DNA of 64,000 nucleotides from Minutocellus sp. GHC0000111 (lineage: Eukaryota). The number at the start of each line of letters is the position of its first letter. The first letter of the stretch is position 1. The translations under genes were made by a program, and so were the position numbers. The stretch is from assembly GCA_977018835.1 (NCBI GenBank), contig OZ361256.1:5952001-6016000 (forward strand), given 5' to 3'. Of the stretch, positions 4,195 to 61,595 are shown piece after piece. The notes beneath the pieces were generated by a model, which was given only the letters and a program-made list of their open reading frames with translations, searched no databases and was not told where the DNA came from.

Positions 4195-4399
4195 TATTTG
4201 TAGCCTGACTAGCTACGCTGGAACCAGAATGTAGATCTAGAGTCTACAAATGCCATGGTGTAGTTTAAAAATTGCAAGACAAGCAAGCAAGCACCTGCAA
4301 GTACATCTTTCACATGTAGTCGTAAGTTTGCAAGGAAGTAGAGAGCTAGACTTTACCGGTAGCTAAGTAGGATGAGACTAGAAGAGTCTATGCACTGTC

Positions 4400-7000
4400 T
4401 ACTTGTTGTAGGTTGTTTTGCCAGACAAACATGCCACTGAAGATTCCTTTTGCACTCCCAGCCTTTCAAATGATACTTCTGCTGGTCAGGCATTGCATGG
4501 CATTGTCTTTCTACTGACACGTGTACATACATGTAGATCCTCCACCCACTTGACTGACCATGAGATTGATTGATTGCTGCCCCCTCCGGATGTTGTTCAC
4601 CAGAGTGTTGCAACACCTGCTTGCTTCCCCATGACATGGACTGGCTTTTGAGTGTTGCAACACCTTCTTGCTGTCCTGTCAAACTAAAAAAAGCAAACTG
4701 CCCCGATGTTGTTCTCGTCTTGTAACTTGAGGCCTCTCAGCTGGTGCTGCCTTCTACATGCTCTTCATCGATGTCCTCTCCTTCATCACTGCTGTCCTCT
4801 CCTTCTTCTTCATTGCTTTCTGCTGCCTTGGCCCTGCGTGCTTTTTTGACAATCTCCTCCAAGGCTTTGATGAGCTGTTGTCGACACTTGGCCTTGGCTC
4901 CCTCATTGACCAAGCACATCTCGAAACGAAGCCGACGTGACTCCTTGTCATCTCGCAACGAAAAGCGGACGTGACTGGTTCCTTGTCGTCATCATTCAAC
5001 GGGAACTTGGCCACCAAGGCGGCCTTCAACTCTCCTCATCAGACCTTCGCAGCACCAATGGCTCCCATCGAGGATGCACAGTTGCCGGCACCGTCGGCCA
5101 CGGGGGCTGGAACACGACAAGAGACTTTCCATCCAGCTCAGGACTCTCATCCACTTACTGTAGAGGTAAGGGTAGACTAATGCTAAACCTGATGCTATTG
5201 TCTTTCACAAGTGCACACCCGCCGAGCCACACTTCATCCTCTTCTTCCACTTCTAGAGACAATGATAGCCTGGGAAGGATCTTCGGTCACATTCCGAAGC
5301 TCACTGGACGAGAATCGTTGTCTACGGCACTCATAAAAGTATGTGAAGTATGAGCATACCAAGATCGTTCGCATCTACACATCCCCACCTCGATTCTCAG
5401 ATGCCCAACTCAGCTCTACTTGGCCTGATGAACGTGGCACCGAGCGTTCCTTCCCATGGCATGGATAAAGCAATGGCTGCTACCAATACTTCCAGTTTGA
5501 AACATTATCGCGTACACATCATGTACAGCATCTTGCCCACTCTTCCGCTCATGACAAACGGGGAATGGCGGACAGCAACATGATAGTAACCTGTGGCTGC
5601 ACGTTCCGTGGGCGAGCGACCCGACGCGCTCAATGTTTCCGGAGCAAGAGACTGCACCACTGTCTGAGCTTTCGGTACCGGCGATCGGTTCTCTCCATAA
5701 GCCCTCAACGACCCGGATAGTAATGCTGACAAGGACCAGGACCCTAACCCTATTCATCTTTGGTAAAAACGTGCCTTGTACATAGCTGCATTCAATACAA
5801 AAGGGATGTATCATCTGCAACTCTGGTAAAATTGTAGATCCTATTGAAAAATTGAAGCTATGAACTAATATATTGTCGCAAGCAGACTGAAGTGGTTGCA
5901 CTTGAAACATCTCAGGTCGCCCATTCGGCGCCAATCTCATAAGCCAGACGGGGACGGGCGCCGCTTCAGCAAAGCTTGCTCTTTTACGAACGCCGCTGCT
6001 TCCGATCTCAAACTCTTCGAGGGTGGTCGCTGAGGCATCACTAGCCTATGAAGCAGCAATCGCGATACAGCCTGTCGAGCCATCGATCCGTCACCAATTG
6101 GCTGCTCTCCGACGACGGCCTGCCGTTGAACTACCTTTTCAAATCAATTCATCGCACAGCAACGATCGCAAGGCAAAAGTAGCAGTCCCCATGTTCAAGT
6201 AATTCGTTGTGTTATAATGGCAGCCAACGACAGCAGGGTTGATGTCGGCACGGAGATCAACCTTCCCTTGAAAGCCAACTTGCGCCGCGCACATGAAAGC
6301 AAGCTCTCGAATATTACTAAAGGCCTTGTTTGTCGTCGCAATCAAGAAGGTCTGCTTGGGTAGACTGCAACATCAACCTCACATGCATGGCGTGTCCTCT
6401 GGGGAGCCCTGGCCCAAGGCAGGGTGGAGCACTGATCCTAGCCGAATGGGTTGCGAACCTGTGGCTTCTCAGGTGATCTTGGAGGCCTTGTTTGTCATCC
6501 CAAACAAGGGCTGGCCTGGCTTGGTCAAACTGAGCAACACGTCAAGTACCCCCAACGTCAAGCATGTTGCTGCTGTGTCAATGTTGTTTCCGCCTCTTGG
6601 GTCATCCCATGCTGAATCTTGTGACCTTAGTCCTTTTGTTTGTCGTTGTCAACCAGCCTTACACTTCAACAACAGGATGGTTCCCTCCAAGGAGCAATGT
6701 CGTCTCGGCCTTTCTGCTTGACACCACCAATTGCCATGATTCCGACAGATGGGGGTGGTGGAAGGAGGACAAGGTCAGCAAGAAGAGCACGGTTGGCAGC
6801 CTTCTCGAGGGTATTATTGACCTTTTTGTTGGTGAGGGCATTTTGTTTGTGTGGGGCGCATGGTGGGGATGTTGCTGTGCTCTGCCAGGAAGCAAGCTCT
6901 TCTGAAACTTTCTTTTCTCCGGAACGCAGTGTTCTACTGCATGTGTACATGTAGTTCTAGTCTGGTTTGACACACACTGATGCATTCACTGCTCATTCTT
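4400..7000. pseudogene. Decayed, CpG-eroded repeat/pseudogene-like region of unknown origin
   Basis: No long ORF. Stretches at 4400-4950 and 6350-6950 are rich in TG/CA and poor in CG, with broken protein-like fragments on the minus strand. Adjacent to the LINE. Confidence 0.35.
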
Positions 7001-7059
7001 TGCCGATTGGCTCAGAAAAGCTACATGTAGTCAGCTCAGTATCGGCTGAACGACTCATG

Positions 7060-8500
7060 CTACATCGACGCCAACTTTGGAATGAAGCAGATGGCCCAAC
7101 TTCTCCAACACCAGTATGAAGTACACCTCATCTTCGTCGACCGAATTGTTGTGGAAAATTATGACTCGATGCGGTCCCCAACAGTCTGATTTTGGTGATC
7201 CAGAAGCATATCGCGACGTCAAGATTGATCTACACATCGGGAAGGAGAAAGCCACCTTTGGCTCTACCTGCGGGGTAAAGCAAGGCGACAATCTTGCTCC
7301 CATCCTGTTCATCATGTTTATGAATTGCGTAGCGGAGAGCCTCGATGACTTGTGGGATTTTGAGCAGCCTAACCTTCAGTATGTCCCAGACGAAGAAGAA
7401 GGTAGAGCCCGAGGCCAACTCACGAAGATGCCGGTGAAGACTAAGAAGGGTGAGAGATTTTCTTTTTTCAAGTCTTCCTATGTTGACGACACCGCATTTA
7501 TGTTGTTGAACCGTGAAGATGCCATCAGAGCCACAAAACTTATCGTCTCCCATTTCAAGCGATTCGGCCTGACAGTACACACCGGTAGTAGATCCCTCGG
7601 AGAAGGCTCCAAGATAGAAGCCCTGTACATCCCACCACCTACCTAGGTAGGAAGGAACCGTACACCGAGGAGGAGCTACTGGCAGCAACTGCTGACATTG
7701 TTATCGACGACGACCGATACATATCGTACACCGATGAATTCAAATACCTCGGCAGCCTGCTTGAGAAGCATCTGAACGATATAGTGGACATAAATGCCAG
7801 AATCAAGCAAGCCAAAGGCCAATTCCAAGCGGTGAGTGACAACATCTTCACCAACAAGGATGTACCACTACCCGAGCGACTACGATACTACAATGCCCTC
7901 ACCGTCAATACAGCACTATGGGGATGCGAAAGCTGGGCGCTCAAACCATCACTGATCAAAAAGCTAGAGTCCATGCACCACAACTGCCTCCGTCAAATCG
8001 TAGGGTATAACTTCTACCGAGACGGTAAAGTCACAAATGAAGATATTAGAGCGGAAGCTCTTAGTGCCTACATGTATACGATGGAAACCAATCTAGACCT
8101 AAGGAGATGTAGATGGTTAGAGAAGGTTGCAAACATGGGAGATAACAGATTGCCTAGAAAGTTATTTGGAGCCTTCTGCCATGGAAAATCTAGACGACGC
8201 GGCAAAGCCAAAGCTACAATCCGACATGGATACCGTGACACTCTAGAGAAACTAGGCTTCGGATCTAGAGCAAACGACCTCAGTGAATGGATGCCAGCTG
8301 CCAGAGACCCAGTTCTATGGGCTGAAATAGTGGAGCTCCGACTAGGATTAGTATCCGGCACGTATACAAAGTACAAATTCCGTCAAACGACGATTTCTGA
8401 TTCTATTTTCGGTTGATTTATTCGGACAATTGCTACAGCGGATTTTACATTTAGAGATTAGGGAACTCAAGCCCAATAACCTAGGTGAGTACTCATCATC
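7060..8500 (+). mobile_element. 5'-truncated, disrupted non-LTR retrotransposon (RTE-like reverse transcriptase)
   Basis: RT motifs HLIFVD (partly deleted), ELLWKIM, GVKQGDNLAPILF, YVDD, FKYLGS, RIKQAKGQF, LWGCESW, RRCRWLEKVANMGDNRLPRKL. Frame broken by an 8-bp insertion at ~7641-7648. Short (CAT)n at ~8494-8503. Confidence 0.9.
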
Positions 8501-11170: not shown

Positions 11171-11231
11171 GCTCTAAAAAGCAACACCGCACTGCAGTAA
11201 TGCTCTAAAAAGCAACACCGCACTGCAGTAA
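11171..11231. repeat. Perfect 30-bp direct tandem duplication in a divergent promoter
   Basis: GCTCTAAAAAGCAACACCGCACTGCAGTAA at 11171-11200 and 11202-11231. Confidence 0.95.
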
Positions 11232-11346
11232 GCCTCAAATCACAGTAAAACTCCCAGTAAATTGATTCCAAATCGTATGATCGGCGCACCATCGCTAGGA
11301 GCAAAGCATTTGATCAGCTACGAAGCAGCTGCACCGTGTAACAGCC

Positions 11347-13209: not shown

Positions 13210-13521
13210 TTTATTATGCCCGATGCATTGGGATGCACAGAGACATAAAGCATAAATCACACGCGCAAAATAGATGTATAGTGGAAAGATCAGAAGTCAT
13301 ATTATTATTTTAGAATTTATCATTGCTATTCAATCTCAAGACAAGGTTACATCTGCAGAGACAGATTGATGGGACCAAAATTGAACGGATTGCAACGCAG
13401 CTCATTGTGGAGACATGCATAGTTGTTTACAAAATGATTAGATCTTTGATTCACCCACGATCCTCCTAAGTCGACCTTGATCTCTCAAGGACAACAAATT
13501 CTTCGAATCGATCGACTAGTG

Positions 13522-14372
13522 CTATAGCTCCCCACACTCGACAATTCGCACAGGCATACGAGGCTTGTTTTGATTACCGCTGACTGGTACCGCTTCACAC
13601 TTGCGCACTGTCAACATTGACTCAGCATCTAATACGCGCCCGAACACACAGTGCTTCCCATCGAGCCAGTCTGTCGCTTTGCACGTGATGAAGAACTGAC
13701 AACCATTTGAATTCGGGCCAGAATTGGCACAACTTAGCATTCCTGGCCCATCGTGTTTATGCACAAAGTTCTCGTCTTTGAAACTAGGTCCATAGATCGA
13801 GACCTTGCCGCTGCCATCGTGGTTAATGAAATCGCCTCCTTGAATCATCTATGCGTTTTGGAAAAGATGATGCATTAGTGTGATGAGCTCAAAACACATG
13901 ATTTGATTTGAAAGAAACATACAAGGTCAAGTCTACTAAATTGCAATGCAGCAAACACAAAACAATTCCTACTTACAAAGTCTTTGATAATCCGATGAAA
14001 GATCGACCCTTTGTATCCAGTCGGTTGCTGATTGAATTGCGAGGAAGTAAATTCGCCGGTGCAGAATTGTCGGAAGTTTTCACATGTTTTGGGGCACTGC
14101 GTAGGGGAGGATAGACGATGGCGACGTAAAATGAGCACAACATGTGGTGGAATACAAATGTTGGCCAATGATCATCATTTCATAATCAAACTCACATCCT
14201 TGACGAACAGCTCCAGCTTGATCCGTCCCAAGGGACTGCCTCCAGACTTGTCCTCCTTTCCACCGCCCAACACCACATCCAGGAAAACCACGGCGTTCCC
14301 CCTGTTGATTGCCTCCATGACAGCTGGGTCCGGGCCCTGCTGCAGAGACGAAGCTGCACCGGTGCTTGTCAT
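13522..14372 (-). CDS. PPIH: Cyclophilin-type PPIase, cyclophilin H-like (3 exons)
   Basis: VFLDV...GRIKLELF | [15 protein letters not shown]...[14 protein letters not shown] | MIQGGDF...[18 protein letters not shown]...[12 protein letters not shown], with two GT-AG introns. Confidence 0.9.
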
Positions 14373-14617
14373 GTCGGAAAAGTTGAGCGAAGATGCAGCT
14401 GGTAACCGGGCTTCTAGCTAGGAAAAGGATTGAATATCATAATATGAACCATACCGATACCACCGCCGCGCCACCCCTGTAGCAGGAAGGTCCGTCATCG
14501 ACCGTTTCGTTGGCGGTTGCGGGAAGCGTGGTCCCGCCCCCATCGCGCATCTGCCAGTCAGACGGAGATGGCACAAAAGAGATCGAACGAGAACGGCGCG
14601 GTATCGGCCACAAATTC

Positions 14618-15654: not shown

Positions 15655-15727
15655 GTTGGACTGCCTGCTGCTGATTTTGCTATTGATTGTTGGATGGATA
15701 ATGCATTATTCTCGCGAATCTCGACTT

Positions 15728-20615: not shown

Positions 20616-23062
20616 CGTTATCTCTACGCGAGTTGACCTCTTTCCTCCCGCGTACACTGACAAATTGGCTCAGCTACAAGATGGTATCGAACCAATGCCT
20701 TTCGAACTCGTTGAAGGGGTCGTACGGCAGGAACTTCTTGATAGCGCCCCTTTGTCGGATTTGTTCCTTAATTTTGACAAAGAACCTCTTGGGGCTGCCA
20801 GTATTGCACAAGTCCACAAGGCTTCGCTACTCGACGGACGTATTGTCGCGGTGAAGCTGCAGCGTCCCAATGTCGAGCCGAAGTTACTAGGCGATGTAGC
20901 AAATCTGAAACGCATCAGCAAGGCCTTGGCGAAGTCTCTTCCCGTGGATTACTACACGGTGTTCTCAGAGCTTGGAGAGGCACTTATCAATGAACTTGAT
21001 TTCCTTTCAGAGGCAAGCGCAATGAGAAAGATTAGCTACGCGGTTAGTCATTGCAACGATGGAACGCCCGCCGACCCACCAGTAACCATTCCACGTCCCA
21101 TCGGCGAGCTTGTCTCCAAGAGGGTGCTCGTGATGGACTTTGTATCAGGAACTCATCTCAATAGGCTTCAAGAGACAATGAAAGAGCGTGGTATCGAGCC
21201 TGGTTCGCCCGAGGCAAAGCTTGCGGGGAGAAGAATTCTCAACAGCTTGTCCTCGGCTTTCGGTGAGCAGATTCTACTCAGAAGCAATACTTTTGCTTTC
21301 ATTTACTTTATGCAACTCACCCTTATGCATCTCCTACATCAAATGAATGACTTCAATCACCTACCAACTCAGGGCGCATGATATTCGGGGCAGGTTTTAT
21401 CCATGGAGTGAGTTTTTACCTGGCTTATGCTCGCTCGGTTTATCTACATCAACACATTTCACCCTCTCATTTTCTCGCCTTTCGTCTCCTCCTTCTTTCC
21501 ATCGTCTCCAATACCTCTACCTCTACCTCTTTATAGGATCCTCACCCAGTAAGTTTAAAAATATGCTTGTATGCTACAACTGCGATGTGTCCGTTACTTA
21601 TTTCCTATGCCAATATGCCGATAATTTGCTTGGTCGGTCTCACGTATCTTCTGCGTTAATTTATTTCTTCAACTCAACTCACATTCCAGGGCAACATATT
21701 CATCGGAGAAGGCGGCAAGGTTGCATTGATTGATTGCGGTCAGTTCAAGGCCCTACCACGCACTCAAAGAGTGCAGCTGGCAAAACTAATCTTGCAGGTG
21801 GACGAATACCAAAAGGCCGAGTGCGTGGATGATGCAAACGAGGCAAAGGCGAAACTTGCAGGTTTGATTAGAGATTTCGGCGTGAAACTTATGCCCGAAC
21901 ACGAGAACGACGATGATCTAGCGGCTGCCGTTGCCTATTCCTTTTGGGGATTCCGATAGACCTTTGCCAGGTGGATACAGCACATCGGAATTGGACGAGA
22001 AATCCCCAATCAACCTGATTGCCTCGTTTCCCCAAGAATTTGTTTTGCTTGGCAGGGCAACAGTTTTACTCAAGGGTATTGCCAAGCGCCTCGATGTTCC
22101 ATTCTCGCTTGCCGAACGTTGGTCCAAGGGATGCAAATTGACAGTAAGTGCGGCATCTGCGCCGCAGCTACCTCTCTGGGGGAAGGATGTGGTGGATGAT
22201 CGTGACTCCGGGGGAACATCATCAGCCTCGAGTAGATCTAGCATGAAGCAATCTCAACAAGGAGGTGGAAGAGCCGCCGACAAGGACAATAAGATCCAAT
22301 TTCGCCAAGTTGCGCGTTTCTTTAAGGCCTGGGGCAAGGGCAAGGCACGTCGCTTCATCGAACGTGTGGTGAAGAAATTGCCAGAAGGCCTGCGGGCCAA
22401 AGTCTTGGAAGCGGAGTTGCGACGGATGGAGAGGGAGGATGCTGCGAAGTAGATCTAGCTAGAGTTTAGCTAGAAGCTATTATTATTATTAATCATTATG
22501 TATGTCTATGCTACATATATATATAGCTAGAGTCAGATTCATGCTCCGGAATCCGGACGACCTACCTGCTGCATCGAGGTTGAGTCGGTGAACTTGGTGG
22601 CGCGCGCGCGCCGGCGCGCGGCGACTTACACTACCAATGACCCATAAATTGGAGAACATCCGAAGCAGCACAAGAAGACATTCGAAATCGGAAGATTTGC
22701 TGGCGTGCGCGCTTTCAGCTCCGTTGAGCCGTTGAGCGCGAGCGTTGGCCGACCTTCCCTCAAAGCAACACTAAGTACTGCAATACTACGTAGTACCTCC
22801 CTTGCGCTTGTATCGTCGATGAAGAGAAAATTACTTACGTCGATTCGGCCGAACCGCTTGAATTTCATCGGTCGGCTCATCTTCTCTTCAATCTGCTTGC
22901 TTCCAAGCGAACACCTGAATCGAATCGGCCGGATCGAATCGAATCATCGGATCGAAGCAGTGAAAAGAAATTCTCTCCTGATTTTAGGATTGCTTCTTTG
23001 GTTTTGACTCTGCTCTTCATCAGTCACTACTCAATAATCACTCATCGCGAACACTCAACATT

Positions 23063-26000: not shown

Positions 26001-26076
26001 CATGATGCTTCGGAGGATGAGATCGGAAAGCACCGAAGAGATTGAAAGTCGGAGCGCCGCTGCCAATCAGTGGTAG
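23063..26076 (+). CDS. Hypothetical protein with P/Y/A-rich N-terminus and coiled coil; interrupted by an in-frame TAG and a 3' frame change
   Basis: ORFs 23063-23674 and 23729-25510 share one frame, separated only by TAG 23672-23674. Protein-like sequence continues to 26076 in other frames. Confidence 0.6.
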
Positions 26077-26235
26077 ATCTATCTATCTTCTAAGTCTTCT
26101 ACCGGCTTTCTTTACCGGTAGCCCCTTCCTGTGCTATGCTGTGGTACGATAGGAGATCTAATAAAAATATATGTGTAACCTATTAGTTAAGTTTTTTTAG
26201 AACGGTATTACATGTATGTGCTCGTAATTCGATAA

Positions 26236-28337: not shown

Positions 28338-31300
28338 ATGGCGAGGCTTGCATTCCGCCGACCGCCATTGTCACCGGCATCGTCGCCACCATCACCCCCG
28401 AGCGCCAAAGGAGGTAGCGGCGCAGCAGCGAGAAGCGGTACCGACGATATTACTCGCACCGACGCCACCGATAATACCAATACTGGCAGTAACAGTGCCG
28501 GCGAAGAGAAGATCGAGAAGACGAAGATGAAGGCTACTACTACTAGCAGTGGTGCGGCAGACGACTCCTTGTCGTTGGAAGGCGATGTCGATGATGCCAA
28601 CTCCACGACCTCCATTGAGGATTACGACCTCGGCTTCCTGGACGACATGGCGTGCGGGGTTTACAGGCCCATCCGCAAGCTGTGGGGCGTCCAGGCCATC
28701 GCCGGGCTGATCGGCGAGCAGTGCAGCAGCAGCAGCGCCAACAACCAGAGCACCGACGAGGCTGCCGCTGCTGCCGATGATGAGAACGAGAACGAGGCAA
28801 ATAAAGCCGTCGGCACAAGCAAAAAGAGTTCCGGCAAAGCCAACGTCAACTCCTCGCTGCTGCAGGACAGCACCAGCGTAGTCGACTGTGACCAGAGCCG
28901 CCGAAGCGTCACCAGCAGCAGCTACTCCGAAGTCAGCGGCGACGTGGAAACGACCACCAGCATCAATACCAGCACTAACACCAGTGCCAACAATACCAGT
29001 GCCAGCATCGACATTGACGTGTCGGCCGACCTCGACGAGATTGCCCAGCGGCAGGCCGACCTGCTCTACAACGAGCTGGCCCAGACCCGGCAGGAGGTGC
29101 TGCTGCAGAAGCAGCGGAGCATGAAGAAGAACAAGCAGGGAGGCGGTGGCATATTCAAAATGGGTCTGCTGGGACGAGGAGGTGGTAATGGTGGTGCAAG
29201 CAAGGTGAATGCCAACGTCAACGCAACCAGCACCAGCACCACTCCAAAGACTCGTCGCGGTCTATCCCTTCGCAAGAATAGTAACAACAACCACAATAAG
29301 AAGTCCAAGAGCAAGAGCAACAAGTCCAAGTTGAATGCCTCGGCCGACCGGCCCGTCCTTGCCGTTGTCAACGATTCCGGCATCGATCTGGTCAACGTGT
29401 CTCTTCAGCGCAAGAAGAAGGATAGTGATGATGCCAAGGCCGTCGATACCAGCGGCAGTACTGCTGGTACCACTACTGGCCGCAGTGCCACCTACAGCGC
29501 TACGCTCCGTCCCGAGGGGATGGACACCTCCATCGACCTCGTCGTCAAGACCGGGCCTGCTGCTGCTGCTACAGGTACTACCACTACATGTAGTAATGCC
29601 CACAAAGCTGCAACCGCAACCGCCGCTGCCGTCACTGCCACCACTAGCAATAACAAACAGGGACAAGCGGACAATGCAAAGAATGCCGGAGGTGGTGCAA
29701 CGGCGGTCGGATCCGCCCAGGCCAAGCTCGATGCCATCGCCACGGACGAGGCGCTCGCCAGCGTCTTCTTCGGTCCTGCCGCCCAGGCGGCCACCGCCCA
29801 GGCCCAGTACCTTGTCAAGGCCATGCAGGAGGATGCCCGGAGGTACTACCAGGAGGCCGTCGCCGCCGAAAAAGGTGGGGACGTCAAGGGGGCGCAGAAG
29901 TGGTACGGCCTGGCCTCCATGGCCCAGGAGAGGGAGGCCCAAGCCATGGGCATGGACATGGACAGGGCGGAGGCCGAGCAGAGCTTCATGGCGTGCGGTC
30001 TGGAGGTGCAGATGGCTCCCTCCACCCTTACCGACGGACGGAGCGTCGGCAGCACCACGGCCTTTGATGATGAAGACGAGGACGACGACGACGGTGGTAC
30101 CTTCGTGTCCATCACGTCCAATGATTATACTCATCAAGATGGTGCCGGTGCCGTTGATAACAAGGGCACCGGCATTCGTTCCGATGATCTTGGCCTTGGA
30201 GGCATTACCAGCTTTGGTGGCGGGGAAGCTTCTACTGGCCCTGCCCATACGCCTGCCCATGTCCGTCCGGCTGCTACCACGACTACAACTACATGTACCA
30301 CTACCGCTCGTGGCGCCAAGGCTACCTCTACCAGCTTCACGGTGGAGGACCCTACCTTCGTGCTGGAGATGAGCAGTATCGATGAAATGATGGCCTCCTT
30401 CAGTACCGACGCCAAGCCCGAGGCCAGTCAGAAGCAGGAAGAGAAGCCTGCAGTGTCGCAGATGGACAAGAACAAGAAGAAGCCGACCCAACCCACTGCA
30501 ATTGTTGAGGACGAACCCCCTCTGGAACGATCGGAGTTTGTAACTCCCGTCTTCAACCTGCTGGTGAGAGCGTATGGGGCCGAGCACTTTAGCGGCGACG
30601 ACCGGTGGGAGCGGGTCAATGTGATCCTCGATAGTTACAAGGGCCGGGAAGACAGGCTGATCCAATCCCTCCTCACAAAGGCAGCGGAACGGGAAACGAA
30701 GCAGAAGAAGGAGCAGAAGCAGCTGCAGGAGGTCGGTGTTACTGGAAACAAGTCTGGAGCCGAGACAAATATTACTGGCACACCATCGGATTCCTTCCAA
30801 CTTGATGTTTCCTCGATTGCTCCCGAAGCTGCCGCGACTTCTTCTACGCCATCTGAAGCACCACAGAAGCCCGACCTTTCGTTCAGAGACCTCGCTGCTC
30901 GTCCCATTGATGACGATGATTCGGTCTTTGGCGATTTGGAACAGAATGCCGTCGAGCGTGTCGACAACGCAGGGCCATCGGCTTGCTCTCCTCCTACCGC
31001 TGTCAATGCTCTCGCTCTCGGCAATTACGCCCTTTCACCTCCTCCAACCAAATCGGCCTATGCTTCTAGCAGGGGGTATAGTCCCCAAGGGAAAGCTACA
31101 GCGCCCAAAACTCCCTCTACGTTTGGAGTCAACTCGGACTCGGATTGTTCGCCAGCGCCCAATACTAGCATGCAGAGCAATGATTCATCCTCCGCCGCCT
31201 TTGACTTTGGCGGCTTTGCGTCAAGCAATCCGTTCAAGAGACTCGATTTTGCCGATCATGCGGATGATACGAACGCTGTCAGTGCTGGTAACCCGAGATC

Positions 31301-31556
31301 TTCCTCCCCTTTCAACTCGGACACGGACGGTGCAAATAATCAATTTGGATACACTCACGAGTATGCCACCGGGTCGCAAAAGAGTGGAGGATTTACCTCC
31401 ATGGTGGACAGTGAAGATGAGGAAAGCTCACCAGCCAAGCCAATGCGCCTGCCCAATCATCGTCGTGCCGGCCGAGCCTCGACGAGGCTCCGGTCCATCT
31501 TGCAGGGAGGTGCTGCGTCGGCGAAGGCCGAGAGTGCCTCTTTGCTGCACAATTAG
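28338..31556 (+). CDS. Large disordered hypothetical protein with a small helical 'YKGRE..L' module
   Basis: Long ORF of about 1070 aa; motif ERVNVILDSYKGREDRLIQSL at ~30610-30675. Confidence 0.75.
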   Translation: MARLAFRRPPLSPASSPPSPPSAKGGSGAAARSGTDDITRTDATDNTNTGSNSAGEEKIEKTKMKATTTSSGAADDSLSLEGDVDDANSTTSIEDYDLGFLDDMACGVYRPIRKLWGVQAIAGLIGEQCSSSSANNQSTDEAAAAADDENENEANKAVGTSKKSSGKANVNSSLLQDSTSVVDCDQSRRSVTSSSYSEVSGDVETTTSINTSTNTSANNTSASIDIDVSADLDEIAQRQADLLYNELAQTRQEVLLQKQRSMKKNKQGGGGIFKMGLLGRGGGNGGASKVNANVNATSTSTTPKTRRGLSLRKNSNNNHNKKSKSKSNKSKLNASADRPVLAVVNDSGIDLVNVSLQRKKKDSDDAKAVDTSGSTAGTTTGRSATYSATLRPEGMDTSIDLVVKTGPAAAATGTTTTCSNAHKAATATAAAVTATTSNNKQGQADNAKNAGGGATAVGSAQAKLDAIATDEALASVFFGPAAQAATAQAQYLVKAMQEDARRYYQEAVAAEKGGDVKGAQKWYGLASMAQEREAQAMGMDMDRAEAEQSFMACGLEVQMAPSTLTDGRSVGSTTAFDDEDEDDDDGGTFVSITSNDYTHQDGAGAVDNKGTGIRSDDLGLGGITSFGGGEASTGPAHTPAHVRPAATTTTTTCTTTARGAKATSTSFTVEDPTFVLEMSSIDEMMASFSTDAKPEASQKQEEKPAVSQMDKNKKKPTQPTAIVEDEPPLERSEFVTPVFNLLVRAYGAEHFSGDDRWERVNVILDSYKGREDRLIQSLLTKAAERETKQKKEQKQLQEVGVTGNKSGAETNITGTPSDSFQLDVSSIAPEAAATSSTPSEAPQKPDLSFRDLAARPIDDDDSVFGDLEQNAVERVDNAGPSACSPPTAVNALALGNYALSPPPTKSAYASSRGYSPQGKATAPKTPSTFGVNSDSDCSPAPNTSMQSNDSSSAAFDFGGFASSNPFKRLDFADHADDTNAVSAGNPRSSSPFNSDTDGANNQFGYTHEYATGSQKSGGFTSMVDSEDEESSPAKPMRLPNHRRAGRASTRLRSILQGGAASAKAESASLLHN

Positions 31557-31895
31557 ATCTAGATCTACAAAATGATATCATATCTTTATTTTTCTCTTAT
31601 AGTAATAGAGTTACCGGTACATATCTAGCTAGTTATCGGTAGACGTCTACTAGTACCGGTAGCTAGCTACGGTAGAACTGCAGATGCGTGGCACCTTTGA
31701 TCTCCTGAGCAGCTTCAAAAACAGCACGATTTTCTGTTGCGGAAAGCCAGCCGGCCAGCTGAGCCATCCGCCATGACTCACCAAAAATCCAAAAATTCAG
31801 CTGAGGCAAGATTTCACTTCGAAGGAACACACACCTCAACCAACCACAATATCTAAAACTCAATAAGAGTAGCAATGGTTCGATATTGCTGCATG

Positions 31896-32500: not shown

Positions 32501-32574
32501 GCCCAGCAGCTCAAGCGTCTCAACAAAGCACCTCATCCACAAAGAATAGAGACCAAACTTGAAGCAAATCGACC

Positions 32575-33537: not shown

Positions 33538-33686
33538 TTACGTAGCGCTAGCTACTAGGAGGACTATCACGCTACCCCCAAGCGTGCATAAGATCACTGT
33601 CGTTGGTGTCTTGCCGGCCATGCCCACGCCTATTTTGGCCTTGCCTTACATCTTCGGATTGAGCACGAGATCGACGTGAGTTGCGG

Positions 33687-37702: not shown

Positions 37703-37740
37703 TACCTAGGTAGGCCTAGGCCTACCTAGGTACCTAGGTA
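37703..37740. repeat. Cluster of nested TACCTAGGTA/TAGGCCTA palindromes
   Basis: TACCTAGGTAGGCCTAGGCCTACCTAGGTACCTAGGTA. Confidence 0.9.
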
Positions 37741-38473: not shown

Positions 38474-38782
38474 TAGTCGTCTTTGTCTCATGCACCAGCG
38501 AGCAAAGGGACAAAAAATCGAAAGGCCAAGGCCGACACTCACTGACTTACAGGAGAAGGTCGACACGGCCGACGCCCCCCCCCGGGCGGGGGCGGCGTGG
38601 CAATAAGCCGACCGACAACGACTGTGCGCACAATACAACACGAGCAAGCTTAATAATCAGATTACTAATAGTGAACATATTTTACCAGCCGAAGACAGGC
38701 ACAAGTAAGAGGACGGATCGAAGGGAGCAGTTGTCTATCATTCCTATTCTTATTTGTACGTCACTAGCTTGGAATTTCGGTA

Positions 38783-40352: not shown

Positions 40353-40610
40353 ATCTATCAAGTGTGATCAATTGCGTCGTTAGCAATTGTAGCAAATTGT
40401 CCTTGAATGCCGTGCAATCGATCGATGCACGTCCGGGGATGGGAGATACGAGATGAGAGGTCGGTCGGGAGATGTTGACGAGTTGCGACGCTACGTACGT
40501 ACACTTTACGTACATACGCACGATACGTAGAGTCTACGTATCTGATGACCCCGCGCGCGGAGGCCAGGCATCGACGAGGGGCCTAAATAACAAATCAGGG
40601 ATCAGCCGTA

Positions 40611-43600
40611 CCTTTCGGTTTCAGAGGATTTGTAGAGGGTATACCAATAACCCCTAAAAAAGGTCATTCTTGCACCCATTTCTCATTTCCCACCACACGT
40701 GTTTTGTTAGTCGATGTTCTCTTCGGGAGGAACGCAAATGCTCCTCAACTCGTGGACATCTCTACTGGACCTGCTCATTCAGTAGGTTGCCACCGACCAG
40801 TAGTATCCACTGAATTCGCAGGTCCAGTAGATTCTGGCAGGAACACATGTATTTTTTGGTCCCCCGCACACCCTCGCCGACCGACCGCACAACCAACCCG
40901 CAAATTTTGTGACGATGACGACGACCAACCAGACCACGCCCAAAAAATACAAACGCAGCAGAACTTCGTTCTCAGGGAGCAAGAGAGGCAACACCAAGGC
41001 ATCCAGGAAGGCGGCAAAGGCGGCAGCTGAGCCGAAAACACCATCGCCGAGCGCAAACACGTCGAAGAAGCGGCCACGGTCAAATTCGCCCCCGCCAAAC
41101 CGTCACCGTCGTCGGCGAAGAAGAAGAGGACGGCCCCTCCTCCTATCCCCATGGCCTTTCTCCTTGCAGCAGATGTCATTCGAAGGGCTGGTAAGGATCT
41201 GTGGTGGAGAGTAACCCCCGATTCCTGCGCGGCAAAGACGACATTTGTGTTGGTTCTCGCGGCAGAAATGGGAAGACGTCCTCCCCCCCTGCTTTCATCG
41301 AGGCCGACTTGTTGCGTTCCAAGTCCGTCGGTGGAGGAAAGTATGAGCTACAGTACAACGAGGAAAAATGGAAGGATATGCAGCAACATCTCAAGGAGCA
41401 TTGTAGTTTGAAGTTGCACTTGTCGACGTGTCGGCCGAGAGGGAAGACAAGACGCAGGGCGCTTTGTGTTTGTGCTCACAGGTTGCGTAAAAAGAAGGAG
41501 GACAACCACCACCCGAAATTCTCTGGACCGGAGGGACAGAAGGTGCACGAGAAAAGAAATCCCGATGAAGTTCTGTTCTCTGGGCGCTCCTCGACTGTCT
41601 TAGCTACTAAGCTAGGTGAGAGGTTGTCAGCTCACAGAAAGGAGGTGCAGTCAGCGCATTGCGAAGCAAGAGCAAAATCACTAGTCGACGAGGCCAAGAA
41701 ACTGGGTTGGATGCCAGCAAGTCTCCTCAGCATGCTGAAGGGAACTGGTGATGCTTCCGCCACTGAAGCAGCTGCAGCCTCCCCCAATGATGAAGGTTTA
41801 GGAGGAGCCGATACTTCCGTTGTCTGTGCCACCTCCAGTGACATTGATGAACAGGTAAAGGTCGCTCTCGGCCTCGACTTTGTTGTTCGGATGGCCAACG
41901 ACGATGACATGCTCCGTCCTCCTCGTCCCAATGCAACCGTCACCGAACCAACACCAATCAGAAAAGAAAAGCAGGCGAATGAAAGAATGCGGTTCAGCGC
42001 CGTGGCTCTCGCGGATTGGTGGGGATGCGGCGACCCAACAACTCGCACGCATGAAGACCGGCAACAAATTGCAACTGCCGCGTGTCGGCAAGTTGCGTGC
42101 GATCACGGTTATGCCAAGTCAACCGGTGGTTCTCAGCTTTACAAGTGGAGAGACCAGCTCTACAAAAGCCTTACTGATGGCATCAGCAATCCCATCGGCA
42201 GAAAGGAGGTTCGTGGAAGGAAGGCATGCACGGACATGATCGAGGAGAAGGAGCCAGGATGTCTCCGCGAGCTGTGTCGGCATGCTGCTCGGATGAAGGG
42301 TGCGATGGCAACCTTTAAGGAGCTAGCTGACTGTGTGAGCGCAAAATCAGCTACTCCAGATGAAGATAGGCTGACAATTTGTCTCCATCGTCTTCAGCTT
42401 TTTCGCTGGTGGAAAAAGCAAGGCGGTAAGGAGAAGTCGTCGATCGAGAAGCCGAGGCTCACCCCCGAACATTGCAGGAAGCGACTTGATTGGATCGAAA
42501 AGTGGGAGGACATTACGACCGATCCCAACATTCCTGTAGCGTGTCTTGATGAAAAGTGATTTTACACTACTACTCGGCGACGAAAGATCAAGATGTTGCC
42601 ACTTTCTGACGAAGAACTAAGTAGTCCGAACCTCGCGTCTATCCATGCTTCCGAGGCAAGCCCGAAAATTCGATCCAGAAGACACCCTGTCAAAGTTATG
42701 CATCTTGGAGTTGTTGGCCGACCAATGAAGGATGAAACCAAAGACGTTGATTTCAATGGGCGCATCATGATCAAGAGAGTCGCCAGGGAGCAGAAGGTGG
42801 AAAAGCTTACGCGTAATCAGAATTTCTCTCCAGATGCTAAGGTCAACGATGCGCTAAAAAATGACAAAGATTGGCGATTGGCGCGAAATTTACGACGAGA
42901 ATGCTGACATGACCGCCGGCCATCTTTGCGACCACATTGCCGAAATCTACGGCCTTTCTGAGTTTGTTACAGAGCGATTGGAACTTCAATACGAGGACTA
43001 TAAATCCGACGGTCAGGCAAAAAGTCGCAAGCATGCCGCTGTTGGCTACAATCAAAAGATCTCGAGTCTCAAGCGACACACTCCTGATAGCAATGGAGAG
43101 AAGGTGAAGGTTGAGATCGACGACCTTGAGCTCGGGGTGCGGTATCAACGGGGCGATAAGGTTACCAAGGACTGTAGCTGCGACTCCAAATGGATGTTGG
43201 AGACTATGAATGAGGTCGGGAAGGCGATTCGAGACGCACATCATTGGGTGAAGTGGGATCCACAAAATATTCAGGAGTCTGATGTTACATGTCTTATGAT
43301 GGACAATGCCGGTGGTCATGGGTCCAATGAAGCAGTTGAGAAGTACACCGAGGACCTCAAAAACAAATATAAGATTGAGATAATCCAGCAGGTTCCTCGG
43401 TCGCCCGAGACAAATGTTCTTGATCTCGGCATCTGGATGTCTTTGCAGTCGGCCGTCGAAAAGGAGCATCGCGGTCAGAAGAATGATGCGAATGCTCTTG
43501 ACAAGACTGTGATGAAAGTATGGGCCAATGTCGCATCAAAAGAGGCCTTTCTCAATGTATTTGGAAAACTTCCAGTGATATATAACAACATCAAGAGAAG

Positions 43601-44104
43601 TCGTGGCGGTAACAATCTTGTGGAGACCAGACGGGGAAAGGCTGTTCTCTCGCAAAAATTGCCGAGGAAGAAGCTGAAGAGGATGGTGAACCACTCTGGC
43701 CAATTGATGCTCCCGGCGAAGATGATGACATTGAGGACGACATAGATGAAAATGATGAAGACTATGGAGTCATTGATTTGCTATAACTTATCATAGCATG
43801 TCCATTTCTATTCATTACATTTTGATTTGGTGCTTCCAAAAATGTGTATTTTTTCCCGGGGTGAGGAATGCAAATGTCGAAAAAAATCATCACATAATGT
43901 ACATTTATTGGTTCTGGTGCACAATATCTCTCGACTATATGTAGAAGTTGGTGACCATAACTTGGTTCTTGCCCCGACTTCCATCTTGGCCGTCATTTAT
44001 TCCTCGGAGTTAGAAAAAGTGAGAGCTTGGATTTTTGGTCTGGTGTGGTCGTGTTTCTAATACGTCATCATCACGTCACTTTCAAATCCTCTGAACTCGA
44101 AAGG
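40611..44104 (+). mobile_element. Full-length Tc1/mariner-superfamily DD39D DNA transposon (3494 bp) with an inactivated transposase
   Basis: 22-bp TIRs CCTTTCGGTTTCAGAGGATTTG (40611-40632) and CAAATCCTCTGAACTCGAAAGG (44083-44104), 2 mismatches. TA on both sides (40609-40610, 44105-44106). Confidence 0.95.
40915..43790 (+). pseudogene. DD39D transposase pseudogene
   Basis: LDEK*F (W codon read as TGA at 42557-42559), KVMHLGVVGRP, MMDNAGGH...QVPRSPETNVLDLGIW with exactly 39 residues between the 2nd and 3rd Asp, GGNN. Frameshifts near 41100-41200, 42860 and 43710. Confidence 0.9.
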
Positions 44105-44291
44105 TACTTCTAGGTCCTACGTAGTAGGCAAGGAGAAAGTCATCACCACAACATCCTCAAGAGAACTAGCCAGGAGTAGCCCACTAGCCTAGCTAGACTA
44201 GTACGTGAAGTAGTCGGACGAGGATCAAAGGTACCGCTTGGCCATTTGACGTGGCCATTTGACTTACGATCGTAGTCTCCCCCGAGCAAAC

Positions 44292-45310: not shown

Positions 45311-48300
45311 TTATATTTCAACAGGACCGTCCAAGAGAAGATTGTCAAGATCGGCACTAATATCTGCGTCGTAGATGCCATCGCCAGTAGATAGATTAAT
45401 GTCGCCATTATTCGAAGAAGACTCCATAGACAGGCTTGGCTGCACCTCCTCTTGGATACGTGTAGGTTGATCTTCTTTTCCTTTGGTTTTCGCAACCTGT
45501 GGTTTCGACTCGATAGAGAGATTATCATTATTTCTCGTCTCACTCATGCCGGCATTGGTATCACCAATGCTAGGTTGAGCATGTAACTCCATATGTCGCC
45601 GGAGAGCCAATAGGACAACCTGCTCGCGTCCTTCAAATCGCTCAAGGACTGCCTGGAGGCGGCGTTGGGCATGTTCCTCTGTCTCTGCCTTGCCATATAT
45701 GGCCTCTAGACGCATGTAGAGTTCCAATTTGACTGAGAGGTCTCGAAGGAAGTGTTCAATCTCAAAATTGGATCGGATTTGATTGGTAGCAACGCCATCG
45801 TCGCCAATGATGTCAAAGTAAATTTCCACACCGTTGCTGGAAAGCGAAATGTTCATATCAACATCAAGTTGGTCCCCAGCCTCAGTTGGTTCATCAAGCT
45901 GCACGGAAGATAGATTCAATTCGACGCCGATTTCTTCGCCAAGCATGCTCGCATCCGGCCCATGAGTACTAGCCAGTAGGTCAGCTCCTACATGGCCTTC
46001 CTCCACATTAACTTGGATACCTGCAAGGGCATTGTCTTCGTCAACGTCGTCATCAAACTTAGCAACAGACGCTGCCCTGACTTCAATATTTTCGAAGGAA
46101 CAAGCCTCTTCGTCGGGATTTACTGGTAGGCCTTCGCTTAATCCTTCTTCTTTGCCATCACCGTCGACAATTGGCTGCCAACTTTTCGTTTTTTTGCGAC
46201 GTCTTGCAACATCTTTCTTCTTCGGGAGAGTTACTGCCGCAGTCGCCAAACCTGCCGCCATAATACCAAAGGTAGTGACGACTGCGCTCATTTTCTTTTC
46301 ACCTTGGAACTTTCTTTTGTGGGCTTTAACTTCTCCCCTTGGCGATTTTGACAAGCCAAGGGCCAAGTCGCCAGTGGTAGCCTTGGACGGCGTTCCCGCA
46401 GAAATCAGAGGCAAAGAGTCGTCGCGTGTAGAGTTACCATCAGCACTAGCACCATGGAAGGAAGAGTAGTCCGAGTCGGGGCAACCCTGTTCACCTTTTA
46501 CTGCTTCACCGAATGCATTGAGCAAGTTCTCGATAGCTTCTCCATACTTTTCAAGACCCTCAACGACGTTGCCAGCTATGGCCATAGCCGAAGCAACATC
46601 GTCGCTTTTCGATAAAGGGGAAGTATCTGGGGAGGACAAATCTTTAGTATCTTCAGTGCCATCGGTCAGAGATGTGAGATCAAGCAACGTCGACAACTTC
46701 TTGGGCGTCGGTTGGGAGGTCTCCGTGACACCGGTAGAGGCCAACTTCTTCTCCTTGACTCTCCTCTCTAGAGATGCAACGAGCCTCTCAACGTTCTCAG
46801 GGTATCGCTCGATAATCTTGGTGGCTCTCAAAATACTCATCAATGGTGATAGTGCGTCATCATACAGCTCATCGACAAGACCAGCAACCATTACAAGAAT
46901 CTCTTCATCCATCTGAGGAGGGACTCCTGTGGCGTCGGCGTCGGCATCGGTAGTACCGGTACTACATGTACCAAGGGGTGCAGGCACCTGCCGGATCTTT
47001 CGCCGCTGCATCTTGGACAAGGAAGACCGGAACAGTGCTGTCGACTTAGTCCATTTGGTGGCAATGGTGGACTTGACCTGCATATGGACCTTTGGAACAA
47101 CAGCGTTTTCATCGTTGGTACCTTCCTCCTCATTCGCTTGACTCTCAACGGGAGCATTGGCAGGCTTGGCTGAGGCTTTCGTCGATTCGTCACAGTTGAT
47201 TCCGATTGGAGTATCCGTTGAGATATTGAGGGAATTGTTGTCATGATCGAGAGGAGGCATAGCTGAGCGTGGTCTGATAACAGTGATTCGAGCTCGATGA
47301 TTGATCATTTCATCATCCGAGTCAATATCTACCCCCTCAGGCACCTCAGCCTTGTCCATAGCACCCTGCGGTGGCAAAGGAGAGTCCTCTTGAGTGGTGG
47401 GCGTTCGAGTTCGTTGATTCATCGTGGTATCGGAGTGATCTGGGTGAGAGACATGCTGGCAAGAGTCATGGGAGTCGTTGCTTCGTTGGCCAAACCGAAG
47501 GAAGGAACGAGGGCTGGTGGTAATGCCAGCCTCACTTGCATGGTCGAAGCAACGTCCAATCTGGAATCTAAACATTTTGTGTCGAGAGTCAAGAGTTTCC
47601 ATGGTGCCGGGAGATTTAGAATGCGCATGTTTTGAGCGAAGCGATGGAGCGCTCTTGATGACGAGTGAAGTTGCCTTGAGCTTCTTCTGCGACCAAGCCA
47701 CAAGTTTCTTTCCTCTTCCGTCACGACTCTCATCATTCGGTTGGGAGGATGGGCGGTTCAACCCGAGCACTTCGATCCTGGCGGCGTTCTTCGCCTTCCT
47801 AGCAGCATCTTTCTTCTTGGATTTTGAAGCAATACGTTTAGACGAAGCATGCTCCCTGTTCTTGTTGGTGCTGCTGGTCGAGGGAGGAACATCGTGGAGA
47901 GTGGGACGGCCAAGGACGGCGTAGGCCATATCATTTGCGTCGGCAGTTTTCACGGCGTCGACCGCACTTTGGATATCAGCAATTGTCTTTTCGACAGTCA
48001 TACCATAAGAAGTAATGAAATCATCAATGTCCGGAAGAAGATCATCTGCGTCGCTGGCATCTAGGCCCATGCTGGCTGTAGAGAGACCGGGGATGAAAAA
48101 TCCGGACTTGACGGCCCTGCCCTCATCAGGACTGTTCCCATTATCGACGGACGTCTTTTTCACAAACGGCCTGGGTACGACGGGTACGGTCTTCTTCTTC
48201 GGCACCCCCCTGTTCTTATTCCTGTCCTTCTTGCGCAATAGAATACGAAGGCCAATCAACTTATCATCCCCATTGTTCTTGCCGAGCGATGGGCTCTGAT

Positions 48301-48977
48301 GGGCTTTCTTGGCTTTCTTTCCACTTGCCTTATCCTTGCTGCTCTGGAATCGACGCGCAGCATTTCCTCCAGCAGCCCTGGTACTTTTCTTGGCTTCGTT
48401 GCTCCGGAACTGACTACGGCGACGGCGGAGGGCTTTGGTATCGCTCTTGCTTTTCTTCTTGGCCTTGGACGAATAAATGGCCGAGGCAGACGGCCTATGG
48501 CTTTTGCGCTGCTGCTGCCGACGTGCATGCTCATGTTCCGATGAAGACGTAGAATAGTCATCAGCGTCAGAGTAGTACATGTACTCGCTAGTCGGGCAAA
48601 ATGTACAAATCCTGGAGCACCTCGGTGATCTCCCGAGCAGTTGGCATGTTTAGGGCGCATGCCATTGCTGATGCCAGATCGTTGGTCAGGGACTGATCGA
48701 CTGAATCGGATAGCAATGGGGGAGATGCGATCGATTCGTCTAGTGGGAACATCACTGAAGGTGACGCAGTTCCAGTCGACGAAGTGGTTACCCGCGAATC
48801 TCCTCCATTCGGCATGATGGTGCGATGGCCGTCATCGACGCCGCCGTCGTTGTTGGCATTGACAACGGTTTCGGCATTGTTGTTGGTGGTGAGGATGCCG
48901 AAGACATTGTTGGCTAGACGATCAAGCATGCGTTCATCCTCTGCTAGACGATCGGTGTTCGTTGTAGCTGAAGTCAT
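45311..48977 (-). CDS. Large disordered hypothetical protein with two helical 'ERF/Y.GRE' modules (frameshift ~48598)
   Basis: ORFs 48588-48977 and 45311-48580 join if one T is removed from a T-run. Motifs TKIIERYPENVERLVASL and QAVLERFEGREQVVLLAL. Confidence 0.7.
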
Positions 48978-59314: not shown

Positions 59315-60247
59315 ATGACGACCAGCAATGAAAACAACTCTTCGATTTCCGCTGCCACCAGCACCCAGTCTGGCGTGGATGTTCCCACCCTCCTCGCGGC
59401 CGGGTCGACGGAAGGTGCGCCAGTGAAGAATCTGCTCTCGGCAATCGCTCTCTCGTCTCAGTTATCTAATGCCACCCTCCCAGAGGCGAGGGATGCCGCT
59501 TTGGCTCTGCGTCAGGACTTCACTGGGTCATCCAAAGGTGGGAGTCAGAAGGGATGCACTGCAACGATAATCATCTCCAATAAGACAGCGACCTTGCTCA
59601 AGCATGATAAAGGGTCCGCGAGGCGAGGGCAAGTTCATGGACCTGCAACGAGGAATCCTTATGTGAAGAATTTTCCCATGGAGATTGGTGCTGGAACCAA
59701 TGCATATTTTTTGCAAGTCAACCCGTCAAAATCAGCCATGGGCCAGCCCACATATGAAGGCGTTGAAGGCTTGTTTGCTCTTCGCATTGTAGTCTATGAT
59801 GTGTCGAAAAAAGCGTGGGTAGACTCCTCTCAAGCTGTGGCTTTTTCATGGAAAACCTCCCCAGGATCACCACCCAAAAAGAGCAGCGGTGGCGGTCTCC
59901 TTACTGTCCCGCGTGTGCCCAATACAGCAAGGTTCGAGTCAGCGAGTTCTAATACTGAAAGATGGATCAGGCGAAGTGGATGCATCTACGACGGTACCAA
60001 GATATGTTGTGATTTGAAGATAGAGGGAAAAGACGAGATTCACCCGACATTTACATTTACGTTTACGCAGATGGACCGTGGCAACAATGCCAATGACCAG
60101 ACTGTTCCTTTCGGAATGCGAGTGAAGAAGTGGTTTGGCGGTGGCCGGGCTTCTACAGACGAAGCAAGGGAGGCCAACGCAAAGGCGAAGGAAGAGAAGA
60201 GAGAAGACGACAAAAAGTTTGGCGGTATCGATGGGATGACCATGTAA
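59315..60247 (+). CDS. Hypothetical protein
   Basis: Uninterrupted ORF with protein-like composition; no recognised domain. Confidence 0.6.
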   Translation: MTTSNENNSSISAATSTQSGVDVPTLLAAGSTEGAPVKNLLSAIALSSQLSNATLPEARDAALALRQDFTGSSKGGSQKGCTATIIISNKTATLLKHDKGSARRGQVHGPATRNPYVKNFPMEIGAGTNAYFLQVNPSKSAMGQPTYEGVEGLFALRIVVYDVSKKAWVDSSQAVAFSWKTSPGSPPKKSSGGGLLTVPRVPNTARFESASSNTERWIRRSGCIYDGTKICCDLKIEGKDEIHPTFTFTFTQMDRGNNANDQTVPFGMRVKKWFGGGRASTDEAREANAKAKEEKREDDKKFGGIDGMTM

Positions 60248-60311
60248 ACTATCTGTCTAGCTAGACACAAATGTTTATGTTACGTACTAGTATTCAAACT
60301 ATTACTTCCTT

Positions 60312-61595
60312 TCACATCTCATCCGTCGCATGGAATGGGCCGAGAAGATACTTCTGGAAATATTTTACGTAGCTTGGTTGTTGCTGGTTGTCATCGCATC
60401 TTTCACGTCGAAGTATTGCGGCCTCTTCCAATTCCCTTGAACGTTCAAGAGACGCTTTGGTCTTTTTTGACTCTGCCTCGAGAGTGGCTATTTGTTTCTC
60501 CAATATTTGGATCTGGTAATCTTTTTCTAACGATGGCTGCTTGATTGCTCTCACTTCGCTGTCAGACACGGAGTCAAAGATGTGAGCAAACCCATCGAAA
60601 TGAAGGCGAGGTATCCTGTCAACCACAACCAGTCTGATAACGCCAACCTCGTAGCAGACCAAAACAGCACAGATGAAGAGCACAATCAGCATTCGCTTTA
60701 GCCGCTTCCTCCTCCGTCGCTTTCTTCTAATGTATCGTCGAATAGCTTCGTCTCTCTTGGTAGTTTCATGGCTTAAGCTCTCAATGTTATCCGCGTGATC
60801 ATTTAGTGCCCGCAGTAATTGCTTATCCTTCACGGCCAAGAGACGCCGAAGATAATCAATTTCCTCCTCCAACTCACCTGCACTTTCCATGTCATCGTCC
60901 GATGTATCTACAATTGATGATGAAAACAATTTGGCTGGGAATACCGCGCTACCCTTTCTGACGCTCGGTGAAGGGGAACTTCTCCGTGACGAGGATCTCG
61001 TGGGTGTCCGCAACAACATGTTGCTGGCAGCATCGTATGGTCCGGAAACAGTGGGGCCGAACATACTGATCATTGCAGCGATTCGATCTGCAGTCCTTTT
61101 TTTGAGTCGAAATAATTCCTCTTCTGAGATTCTAAAGTCACCGGAGGTGTATGCAATATTGCTGGATAAATGTTGCAGTGTCTGCATTCCACAAACAACC
61201 AGTCTGTAGCTCCAGACAAATTCTGGGAAACTTATCTGACCCTTTTTGCTTTTTGTTTCTGATGCAATTCTCTCATTGTTTGTCTGCTTGCTTAGCCGTT
61301 GAAGCATATACATGAGCTGTCTATCTGCCTTGATCAATTCAACATTGGATATGCTCTGCCGAGTAGCAGTGGAGCTGGCCTTGTTCAAACCGAATTCATC
61401 CTGATTACCAGCAAGAATTTTGTAAGAATAGACAATGCGCTCATAACTGAGTTGGCCTTGGAGCACTTGGGCGTCATCGGTATCAGCGCTGCTAGCCGCC
61501 GATGATGCAGTGCCGATCGATCGACTTGACGACTTTTCTCTGCTACATGTACTTCCGAATCCAAAGAAGCCTGTTCGAGCCGATTTTCGTTTCAT
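60312..61595 (-). CDS. Hypothetical coiled-coil protein with a single TM helix (may extend upstream)
   Basis: 427-aa ORF; a basic stretch followed by hydrophobic MLIVLFICAVLVCY; coiled coils. Confidence 0.65.
   Translation of the reverse strand: MKRKSARTGFFGFGSTCSREKSSSRSIGTASSAASSADTDDAQVLQGQLSYERIVYSYKILAGNQDEFGLNKASSTATRQSISNVELIKADRQLMYMLQRLSKQTNNERIASETKSKKGQISFPEFVWSYRLVVCGMQTLQHLSSNIAYTSGDFRISEEELFRLKKRTADRIAAMISMFGPTVSGPYDAASNMLLRTPTRSSSRRSSPSPSVRKGSAVFPAKLFSSSIVDTSDDDMESAGELEEEIDYLRRLLAVKDKQLLRALNDHADNIESLSHETTKRDEAIRRYIRRKRRRRKRLKRMLIVLFICAVLVCYEVGVIRLVVVDRIPRLHFDGFAHIFDSVSDSEVRAIKQPSLEKDYQIQILEKQIATLEAESKKTKASLERSRELEEAAILRRERCDDNQQQPSYVKYFQKYLLGPFHATDEM

Follow-up and report, generated by a model that had tools for sequence, protein, structure and literature searches.

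The window and its TA-bounded palindromes

The stretch of DNA analyzed here, referred to as the window, comprises 64,000 nt of contig OZ361256.1 (assembly GCA_977018835.1; positions 5,952,001 to 6,016,000, forward strand) from Minutocellus sp. GHC0000111. It is gene-dense, has a G+C content of 52%, and encodes Sec16, eIF-4B, DHDPS, and an LCIB-type carbonic anhydrase; gene calling was approximate and overlooked two or more genes, in the vicinity of 13500-14400 and of 16250. Two mobile elements are central to this work, a mariner-type DNA transposon (40609..44106, plus strand) and a broken long interspersed nuclear element (LINE; 6990..8480, plus strand), together with a large number of short palindromic words bounded by TA at both ends. 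An earlier reading of the sequence alone (the original prediction) regarded these words as footprints of transposon excision, an interpretation that we consider probable in its essentials.

The positions and counts reported in the original prediction for three 8-mers proved exact: 13 copies of TACATGTA, five of TACCGGTA, and seven of TAGATCTA. The expectation under an order-2 Markov model is 0.56, 0.44, and 0.35, respectively; the 8-mers therefore exceed chance by more than the original prediction, which assumed about one copy of each, had stated. The 6-mers TACGTA (14 observed, 6.5 expected) and TAGCTA (19 observed, 4.6 expected) and the 10-mer TACCTAGGTA (four observed, 0.01 expected) are likewise in excess. 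Two further words had been overlooked, namely TACTAGTA, with six copies against 0.17 expected, and TAGGCCTA, both copies of which lie within a single stack. The 8-mers TACATGTA, TACTAGTA, TAGATCTA, and TACCGGTA thus occur 11 to 35 times more often than expected. Another word, CTAGCTAG, is also overrepresented (6 vs 0.26 expected).

The cores between the TA dinucleotides begin almost exclusively with C or G, and cores starting with A or T show no excess. Because the 70 occurrences of the eight words fall into 37 clusters and 19 of the 70 share a TA with a neighboring word, the occurrences are not independent. Only the exact words are enriched: one-mismatch neighbors occur at chance level, including those that decay of a word by TA to CA or TG would generate.

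Evidence for insertion at TA

The length of the words provides a test of insertion within genes. Across 24 open reading frames (ORFs; 37,452 nt, with some uncertain starts), word counts were compared with 300 synonymous shuffles. The five 8-mers, which would add 6 nt and thereby preserve the frame, occur 10 times against 2.0 expected, a count reached by 0/300 shuffles. The two 6-mers, which would add 4 nt, occur seven times against 6.0 expected, as in 122/300 shuffles, and the 10-mer, which would add 8 nt, does not occur. For TA-bounded 8-mer palindromes outside this set, the ORFs contain one copy, compared with 3.2 expected. In non-coding DNA, every length class is enriched, for example TAGCTA (15 vs 2.2), TACGTA (11 vs 1.9), and TACATGTA (6 vs 0.26). 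An enrichment in ORFs of the frame-keeping words only is predicted by insertion followed by purifying selection and not by a binding motif.

Comparison with relatives points in the same direction. Of ten coding sites aligned with related proteins, five read as insertions and two as chance. Three of the five lie in the LINE, a 5'-truncated copy identified by an RVT_1 domain and by its alignment to the intact relative P0047 (91% identity). At 7640..7649, TACCTAGGTA shifts the frame of the reverse transcriptase: consecutive residues 430 and 431 of P0047 map to position 7640 in frame 3 and to position 7649 in frame 2, a change of exactly 8 nt. At 8069..8076, TACATGTA adds 6 nt and two residues, which are missing from both P0047 and P0048 (46%). 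A second TACATGTA in the 5' remnant (7022..7029) corresponds to a looser gap of three residues in P0047. The CATG core copies neither flank at 7022 or at 8069.

The remaining two insertions lie in a host gene on the minus strand, in which TACCGGTA at 46954 stands beside TACATGTA at 46963 (46954..46970). The first of these matches a gap of exactly two residues, equivalent to 6 nt, in P0071 (71%) and is a clean case. The residues encoded by the second are shared with P0071 and are lacking in P0072, which has a gap of three residues. Further along the same gene, TACATGTA at 48576..48583 adjoins a separate frameshift, where EYMYYS in the window aligns with ECYS in P0071; this case is again looser. 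The original prediction would have been undermined by words that are conserved among relatives rather than present as indels; at 7640, 8069, and 46954 (clean), at 7022 and 48576 (looser), and in the stack at 37703 described below, they are indels. It is thus very likely that the words originate as insertions at TA.

Two side observations concern this host gene (45311-48977). Relative to P0071 and P0072, it carries a stop codon and a frameshift at 48575-48600, and P0070 also starts downstream of this region. Within 46950-46970, P0072 has Thr-Cys inserted beside the window's Thr-Gly, which at the protein level could reflect a TACATGTA scar that arose separately at the adjacent TA.

Haplotype comparison and the 37703 stack

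Metagenome runs labeled sponge, marine, and biofilm contain the DNA of the window or of a relative. Contigs from four runs, the fourth of which is RNA, were compared over 20001-40000. Between two divergent genes, in their 5' region, five TA-bounded units (CCTAGG, GGCC, GGCC, CCTAGG, and CCTAGG; 37703..37740) are stacked over 38 nt of the window. In three of the four runs (X1, X2, and X3, from two studies), the other haplotype, at about half depth, has CA in place of the stack, and each of these runs shows 37692 joined to 37740 through 16 different letters. Since X1 is possibly the window's own source and X2 belongs to the same study, X3 provides the sole independent support for the CA allele.

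A check suggested with the original prediction was whether heterozygous 4-, 6-, and 8-bp indels are these motifs. The stack is a heterozygous indel of this kind, albeit with CA instead of TA as its empty allele; no single word is found among the 12 indels listed of 95 over 20001-40000, nor among the 12 listed of 71 in the mariner region. The stack also bears on the age of the words, which had been ascribed to historical traffic. That attribution is doubtful: with one-mismatch neighbors at chance and one stack heterozygous, the scars appear to be recent and not ancient.

Three stretches differ in their haplotype structure. In X1 and X2, 20001-20801 and 31517-32724 are covered at half depth by contigs that show no differences, the latter stretch including a cluster of eight words; hence, the two haplotypes are either strongly divergent here or one of them is missing this sequence. 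In 34107-35175, haplotype differences are dense, far above the level in 23447-28476.

The mariner at 40609..44106 as a candidate donor

The transposon occupies 40611-44104 (CCTTTC...GAAAGG) between TA dinucleotides at 40609-40610 and 44105-44106. Its inverted arms (40608-40632 and 44083-44107) match at 92%, and related elements likewise possess terminal inverted repeats and a TA duplication. The transposase is broken by a stop codon at 42557 and by frameshifts, is 82-91% identical to the intact P0001, and has a Chaetoceros homolog. Pfam DDE and HTH models matched neither the pieces in the window nor the intact proteins P0001, P0002, and P0008, and PF01498 is precomputed for two distant homologs. 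The second and third catalytic Asp residues are separated by 39 residues (D-39-D), and from this spacing we take the element to belong to the DD39D clade, under a nomenclature also found in an article on DD39D elements (PMC9632168). In a scan of the window for TA-flanked inverted repeats, this pair was the only one of 26 candidates associated with a transposase.

The family appears to be amplified. In X2, the main contigs of the element reach a depth of about 21,000-25,000, compared with about 210 on its flanks; this roughly 100-fold ratio is a rough sign of amplification and not a copy number. The P0005 cluster has 275 members. The TA|CCTTTC end recurs in related elements within a set of 80 metagenome loci, of which L009, L022, L023, and L028 carry it at both ends. 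One contig from X15 (loose end at 40608) has another copy of the family immediately after a series of TACATGTA, TACGTA, and TAGCTA words. These 80 loci (197 kb, mostly transposon DNA, with no null computed) contain few of the words and no TACCTAGGTA. Half-depth contigs at both ends of the element, together with a weak joint that skips it, indicate that it is probably present on one haplotype; the joint in X2 (40495 to 44137) has unidentified letters between its sides, and its short side spans only 23 letters.

The original prediction matched a 1-, 2-, and 3-nt series of cores to CCT...AGG ends. The element bearing these ends is real, and its end stubs give the cores CG, CCGG, and CCTAGG.

Two further features of this copy were noted. 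Within 40759-44022, the 12 indels listed of 71 relative to the family majority are all extra bases in the window copy, and 11 of the 12 are tandem duplications of 2-7 nt, which suggests that this one insertion was copied in an error-prone manner. In its 5' region (40761-40831), an inverted repeat of 23 nt, its arms 25 nt apart, resembles subterminal repeats in L002 and L023.

The transposase also shows a mutational bias, which is a side finding and not the cause of the palindromes. Over 41231-43790, the window differs at 46 of the 648 positions where P0001 and P0002 agree, and 18 of the 46 changes require TA to become TG or CA. At the protein level, this corresponds to 18 of 80 chances at TpA and 5 of 500 elsewhere (Fisher p 1e-12). 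Only 13 of 25 Tyr residues are retained, with about half of the Tyr residues replaced by Cys or His, compared with at least 90% retention for the other residues tested. P0005 went the other way at some of these codons, and one of the 18 positions, 42470, may be ancestral, as His is present in most distant homologs. The signal is weak in the LINE (3-4 of 45 differences), and by eye no clear TpA bias was seen among the 40 listed of 468 host single-nucleotide polymorphisms. A similar concentration of TpA to TpG or CpA changes in foreign DNA is described for Bigelowiella natans (10.64898/2026.01.13.699255); that work used mutation-accumulation lines, whereas the present estimate derives from protein alignments of a DNA transposon.

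Excision scars as the probable origin of the words

We consider it probable that the words are Tc1/mariner excision scars that keep the stubs of both element ends. A cut-and-paste origin is supported by the insertions at TA, by the frame filter, and by a high-depth mariner with CCT...AGG ends; of the several families originally proposed, one donor family was seen in the window. From what is known of Tc1/mariner elements, staggered cuts would leave end stubs on both flanks, and end joining may then fill in both stubs of 1-3 bases, without annealing them, to give a palindrome between two copies of TA. This two-sided repair is inferred from the lack of excess of the one-sided forms. Each scar would turn one TA into two, and such doubling would explain stacks that grow through reuse of the site. 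Further families, not seen here, with CA...TG and CT...AG ends could produce TACATGTA and TACTAGTA. A core starting with G would preserve a TAG or TAA stop codon and may account for the three TAGATCTA located on stops, which a short duplication explains equally well. The G-starting words (TAGCTA, TAGATCTA, and TAGGCCTA) are the weakest part of this interpretation; no insertion of one was seen outside the 37703 stack, and an excision origin is possible for them, with the odds falling just short of even. An origin from flank hairpins (hAT-like) was discarded on logical grounds, as the palindrome would then center on TA.

Footprints in related systems have the same layout. For example, 78% of the somatic excision footprints of Tc1 in Caenorhabditis elegans are TACATA or TATGTA (PMC12632400), Sleeping Beauty leaves eight footprints that include TACGTA (10.1101/659086), 1-4 nt are retained by the DD39D elements Ppmar2, where they lie between the TAs, and Osmar5 (PMC9632168), and Passer leaves 0-4 bp (PMC9976928). 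All five IS630-Tc1-mariner elements leave TA, a few end bases, and TA, and TACATGTA itself has been cited among the rare footprints of Tc1 (PMC3520976). The window agrees with these footprints in its insertions at TA and in the end-match for CG, CCGG, and CCTAGG, and it departs from them in that the one-sided forms are not in excess. In the animal systems, one-sided forms dominate, whereas here only two-sided palindromes are enriched, stacked, and persistent in host ORFs. Our literature search, which covered few subscription papers and placed supplements outside its scope, found no report of these words as genome-wide palindromic footprints in diatoms.

Several observations weigh against this interpretation. 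The canonical one-sided footprints show no excess (TACATA/TATGTA, 18 vs 14.1; TACCTA/TAGGTA, 13 vs 10.9), and no element-like 7-mer is enriched in the window. No site was seen at which one allele bears the element and the other a scar, and the donor for the CATG (the commonest), CTAG, GATC, GC, and GGCC cores was not found within the window. The flanks at 7640 are themselves CC and GG, so that the core could be flank-templated. Two copies of TACATGTA in a plus-strand host ORF (29585 and 30290, within 29585..30297) lie in threonine-rich runs that cannot be aligned, and the one at 30290 is shared with P0066. Within the transposase, TAGCTA at 41601 and TACGCGTA at 42808 are ancestral coding sequence and not insertions; single words were accordingly treated as chance. 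At 37703, the empty allele is CA instead of TA and is accompanied by other nearby differences, and the direction of the insertion is not polarized by an outgroup. To these are added the lack of single words among the listed indels and the binding of TACATGTA by a Phytophthora protein discussed below.

A broader scheme, which we regard as tentative and rather unlikely, would unite these observations. Diatom end joining would yield two-sided scars that double the TA target, and stacks, two-residue protein insertions, and motif-like words, perhaps including the TACATGTA of Phytophthora, would follow. TpA hypermutation would then be a counter-move of the host that erases TA targets and transposase tyrosines. 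Such a link through target-site loss is speculative; consistent with it is the scar-free CA allele at 37703, which would represent an immunized site.

Alternative explanations

The rival that survives best, although improbable, holds that the insertions are independent of transposons: fragile sites rich in TA would have acquired them by templated end joining, template switching, or short tandem duplication, with TAGCTA and TAGATCTA as 4- and 6-nt duplications. Consistent with this idea are the tandem duplications in the mariner copy, the excess of CTAGCTAG, the flank ambiguity at 7640, and a doubled TAGATCTA at 31554 that sits on an ancestral stop codon. However, the 12 listed mariner duplications made no TA-bounded palindrome, the cores nearly all start with C or G rather than with whatever follows TA, CATG at 7022 and 8069 resembles neither flank, and the termini of a resident element fit the rare 10-mer.

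Slightly less probable again is the view that the words are selected cis-elements, either promoter sites like the Phytophthora AM-20/motif-1 (TACATGTA) or 3'-end signals (TAGCTA and TAGATCTA). The same 8-mer is an abundant upstream motif in Phytophthora, another stramenopile; the authors of that study noted the likeness to a Tc1 footprint and dismissed it because of the abundance of the motif (PMC3520976). In Phytophthora sojae, TACATGTA is bound by PsMyb37 (PMC11134190). The exactness of the words, without decayed forms, also fits selection, as does their position. The original prediction described clustering just downstream of stop codons, and this was borne out for some words only. Relative to the approximate stops, 11 of 19 TAGCTA, 5 of 7 TAGATCTA, 3 of 6 TACTAGTA, and 3 of 5 TACCGGTA lie within 150 nt after a stop codon, as opposed to 1 of 13 TACATGTA, 3 of 14 TACGTA, and 0 of 4 TACCTAGGTA; the commonest word, TACATGTA, is therefore not clustered. 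Altogether, 3' flanks hold 25 of 49 non-coding words, compared with 28% of non-coding TA.

Against a role as cis-elements stand the frame filter, the insertions that break the LINE, and the absence of the five-word promoter stack from the other haplotype. Moreover, 7 of 13 TACATGTA lie within ORFs or the dead LINE. In the window, TACATGTA is an insertion where tested, is not confined to upstream regions as a promoter element of the motif-1/AM-20 type would be, and is missing in relatives at the sites tested. Some scars may nevertheless have been co-opted later as cis-elements.

Finally, an excess that merely follows from composition, through stop codons, codon repeats, and AT-rich flanks, is a very remote prospect and is rejected for the 8- and 10-mers, because, for all that three TAGATCTA coincide with TAG stop codons, the two transposase words are ancestral coding sequence, and TACGTA and TAGCTA are at chance in ORFs, a large excess survives compartment-specific Markov and synonymous-shuffle nulls and insertions were observed directly.

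If the words are indeed excision scars, then among the most abundant "promoter motifs" in stramenopile genomes some would be mutation products first, and the nulls used in motif discovery must allow for them. Such scars would also provide a countable, per-family record of cut-and-paste traffic and a route to two-residue protein insertions, and their palindromic bias would mean that transposase breaks are repaired differently from those in animals. A heterozygous stack and a donor amplified about 100-fold make the interpretation directly testable in one diploid genome.

Word clusters and minor observations

Further clusters accompany genes and the mariner. Seven words lie around and after the stop codon of a Sec16-like gene (4158..4535), three lie between convergent stops at 26074..26216, and another three occupy the same setting at 60258..60292. 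At 22450..22529, TAGATCTA on a stop codon is followed by three TAGCTA, and at 33539..33554 a TACGTA and a TAGCTA directly follow a stop. A group of eight words extends from a stop codon into the 3' flank (31554..31671) and includes a chain of TA-separated cores (31640-31671); P0067 indicates that the stop is ancestral. Beside the mariner, five TACGTA lie in a 5' flank, 70 nt from its left end (40492..40540), and a cluster of TACGTA and TAGCTA in the right flank (44118..44206) differs in a relative (loose end at 44199 in X16).

Two minor features were recorded outside the clusters. The region 4550-6990 looks like a decayed element: CpG is low (0.39 in 4001-5000), CA/TG is high, and a six-frame Pfam scan of 4550-6993 gave no match. 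Between two divergent genes, 11171-11232 is a 31-nt tandem duplication.

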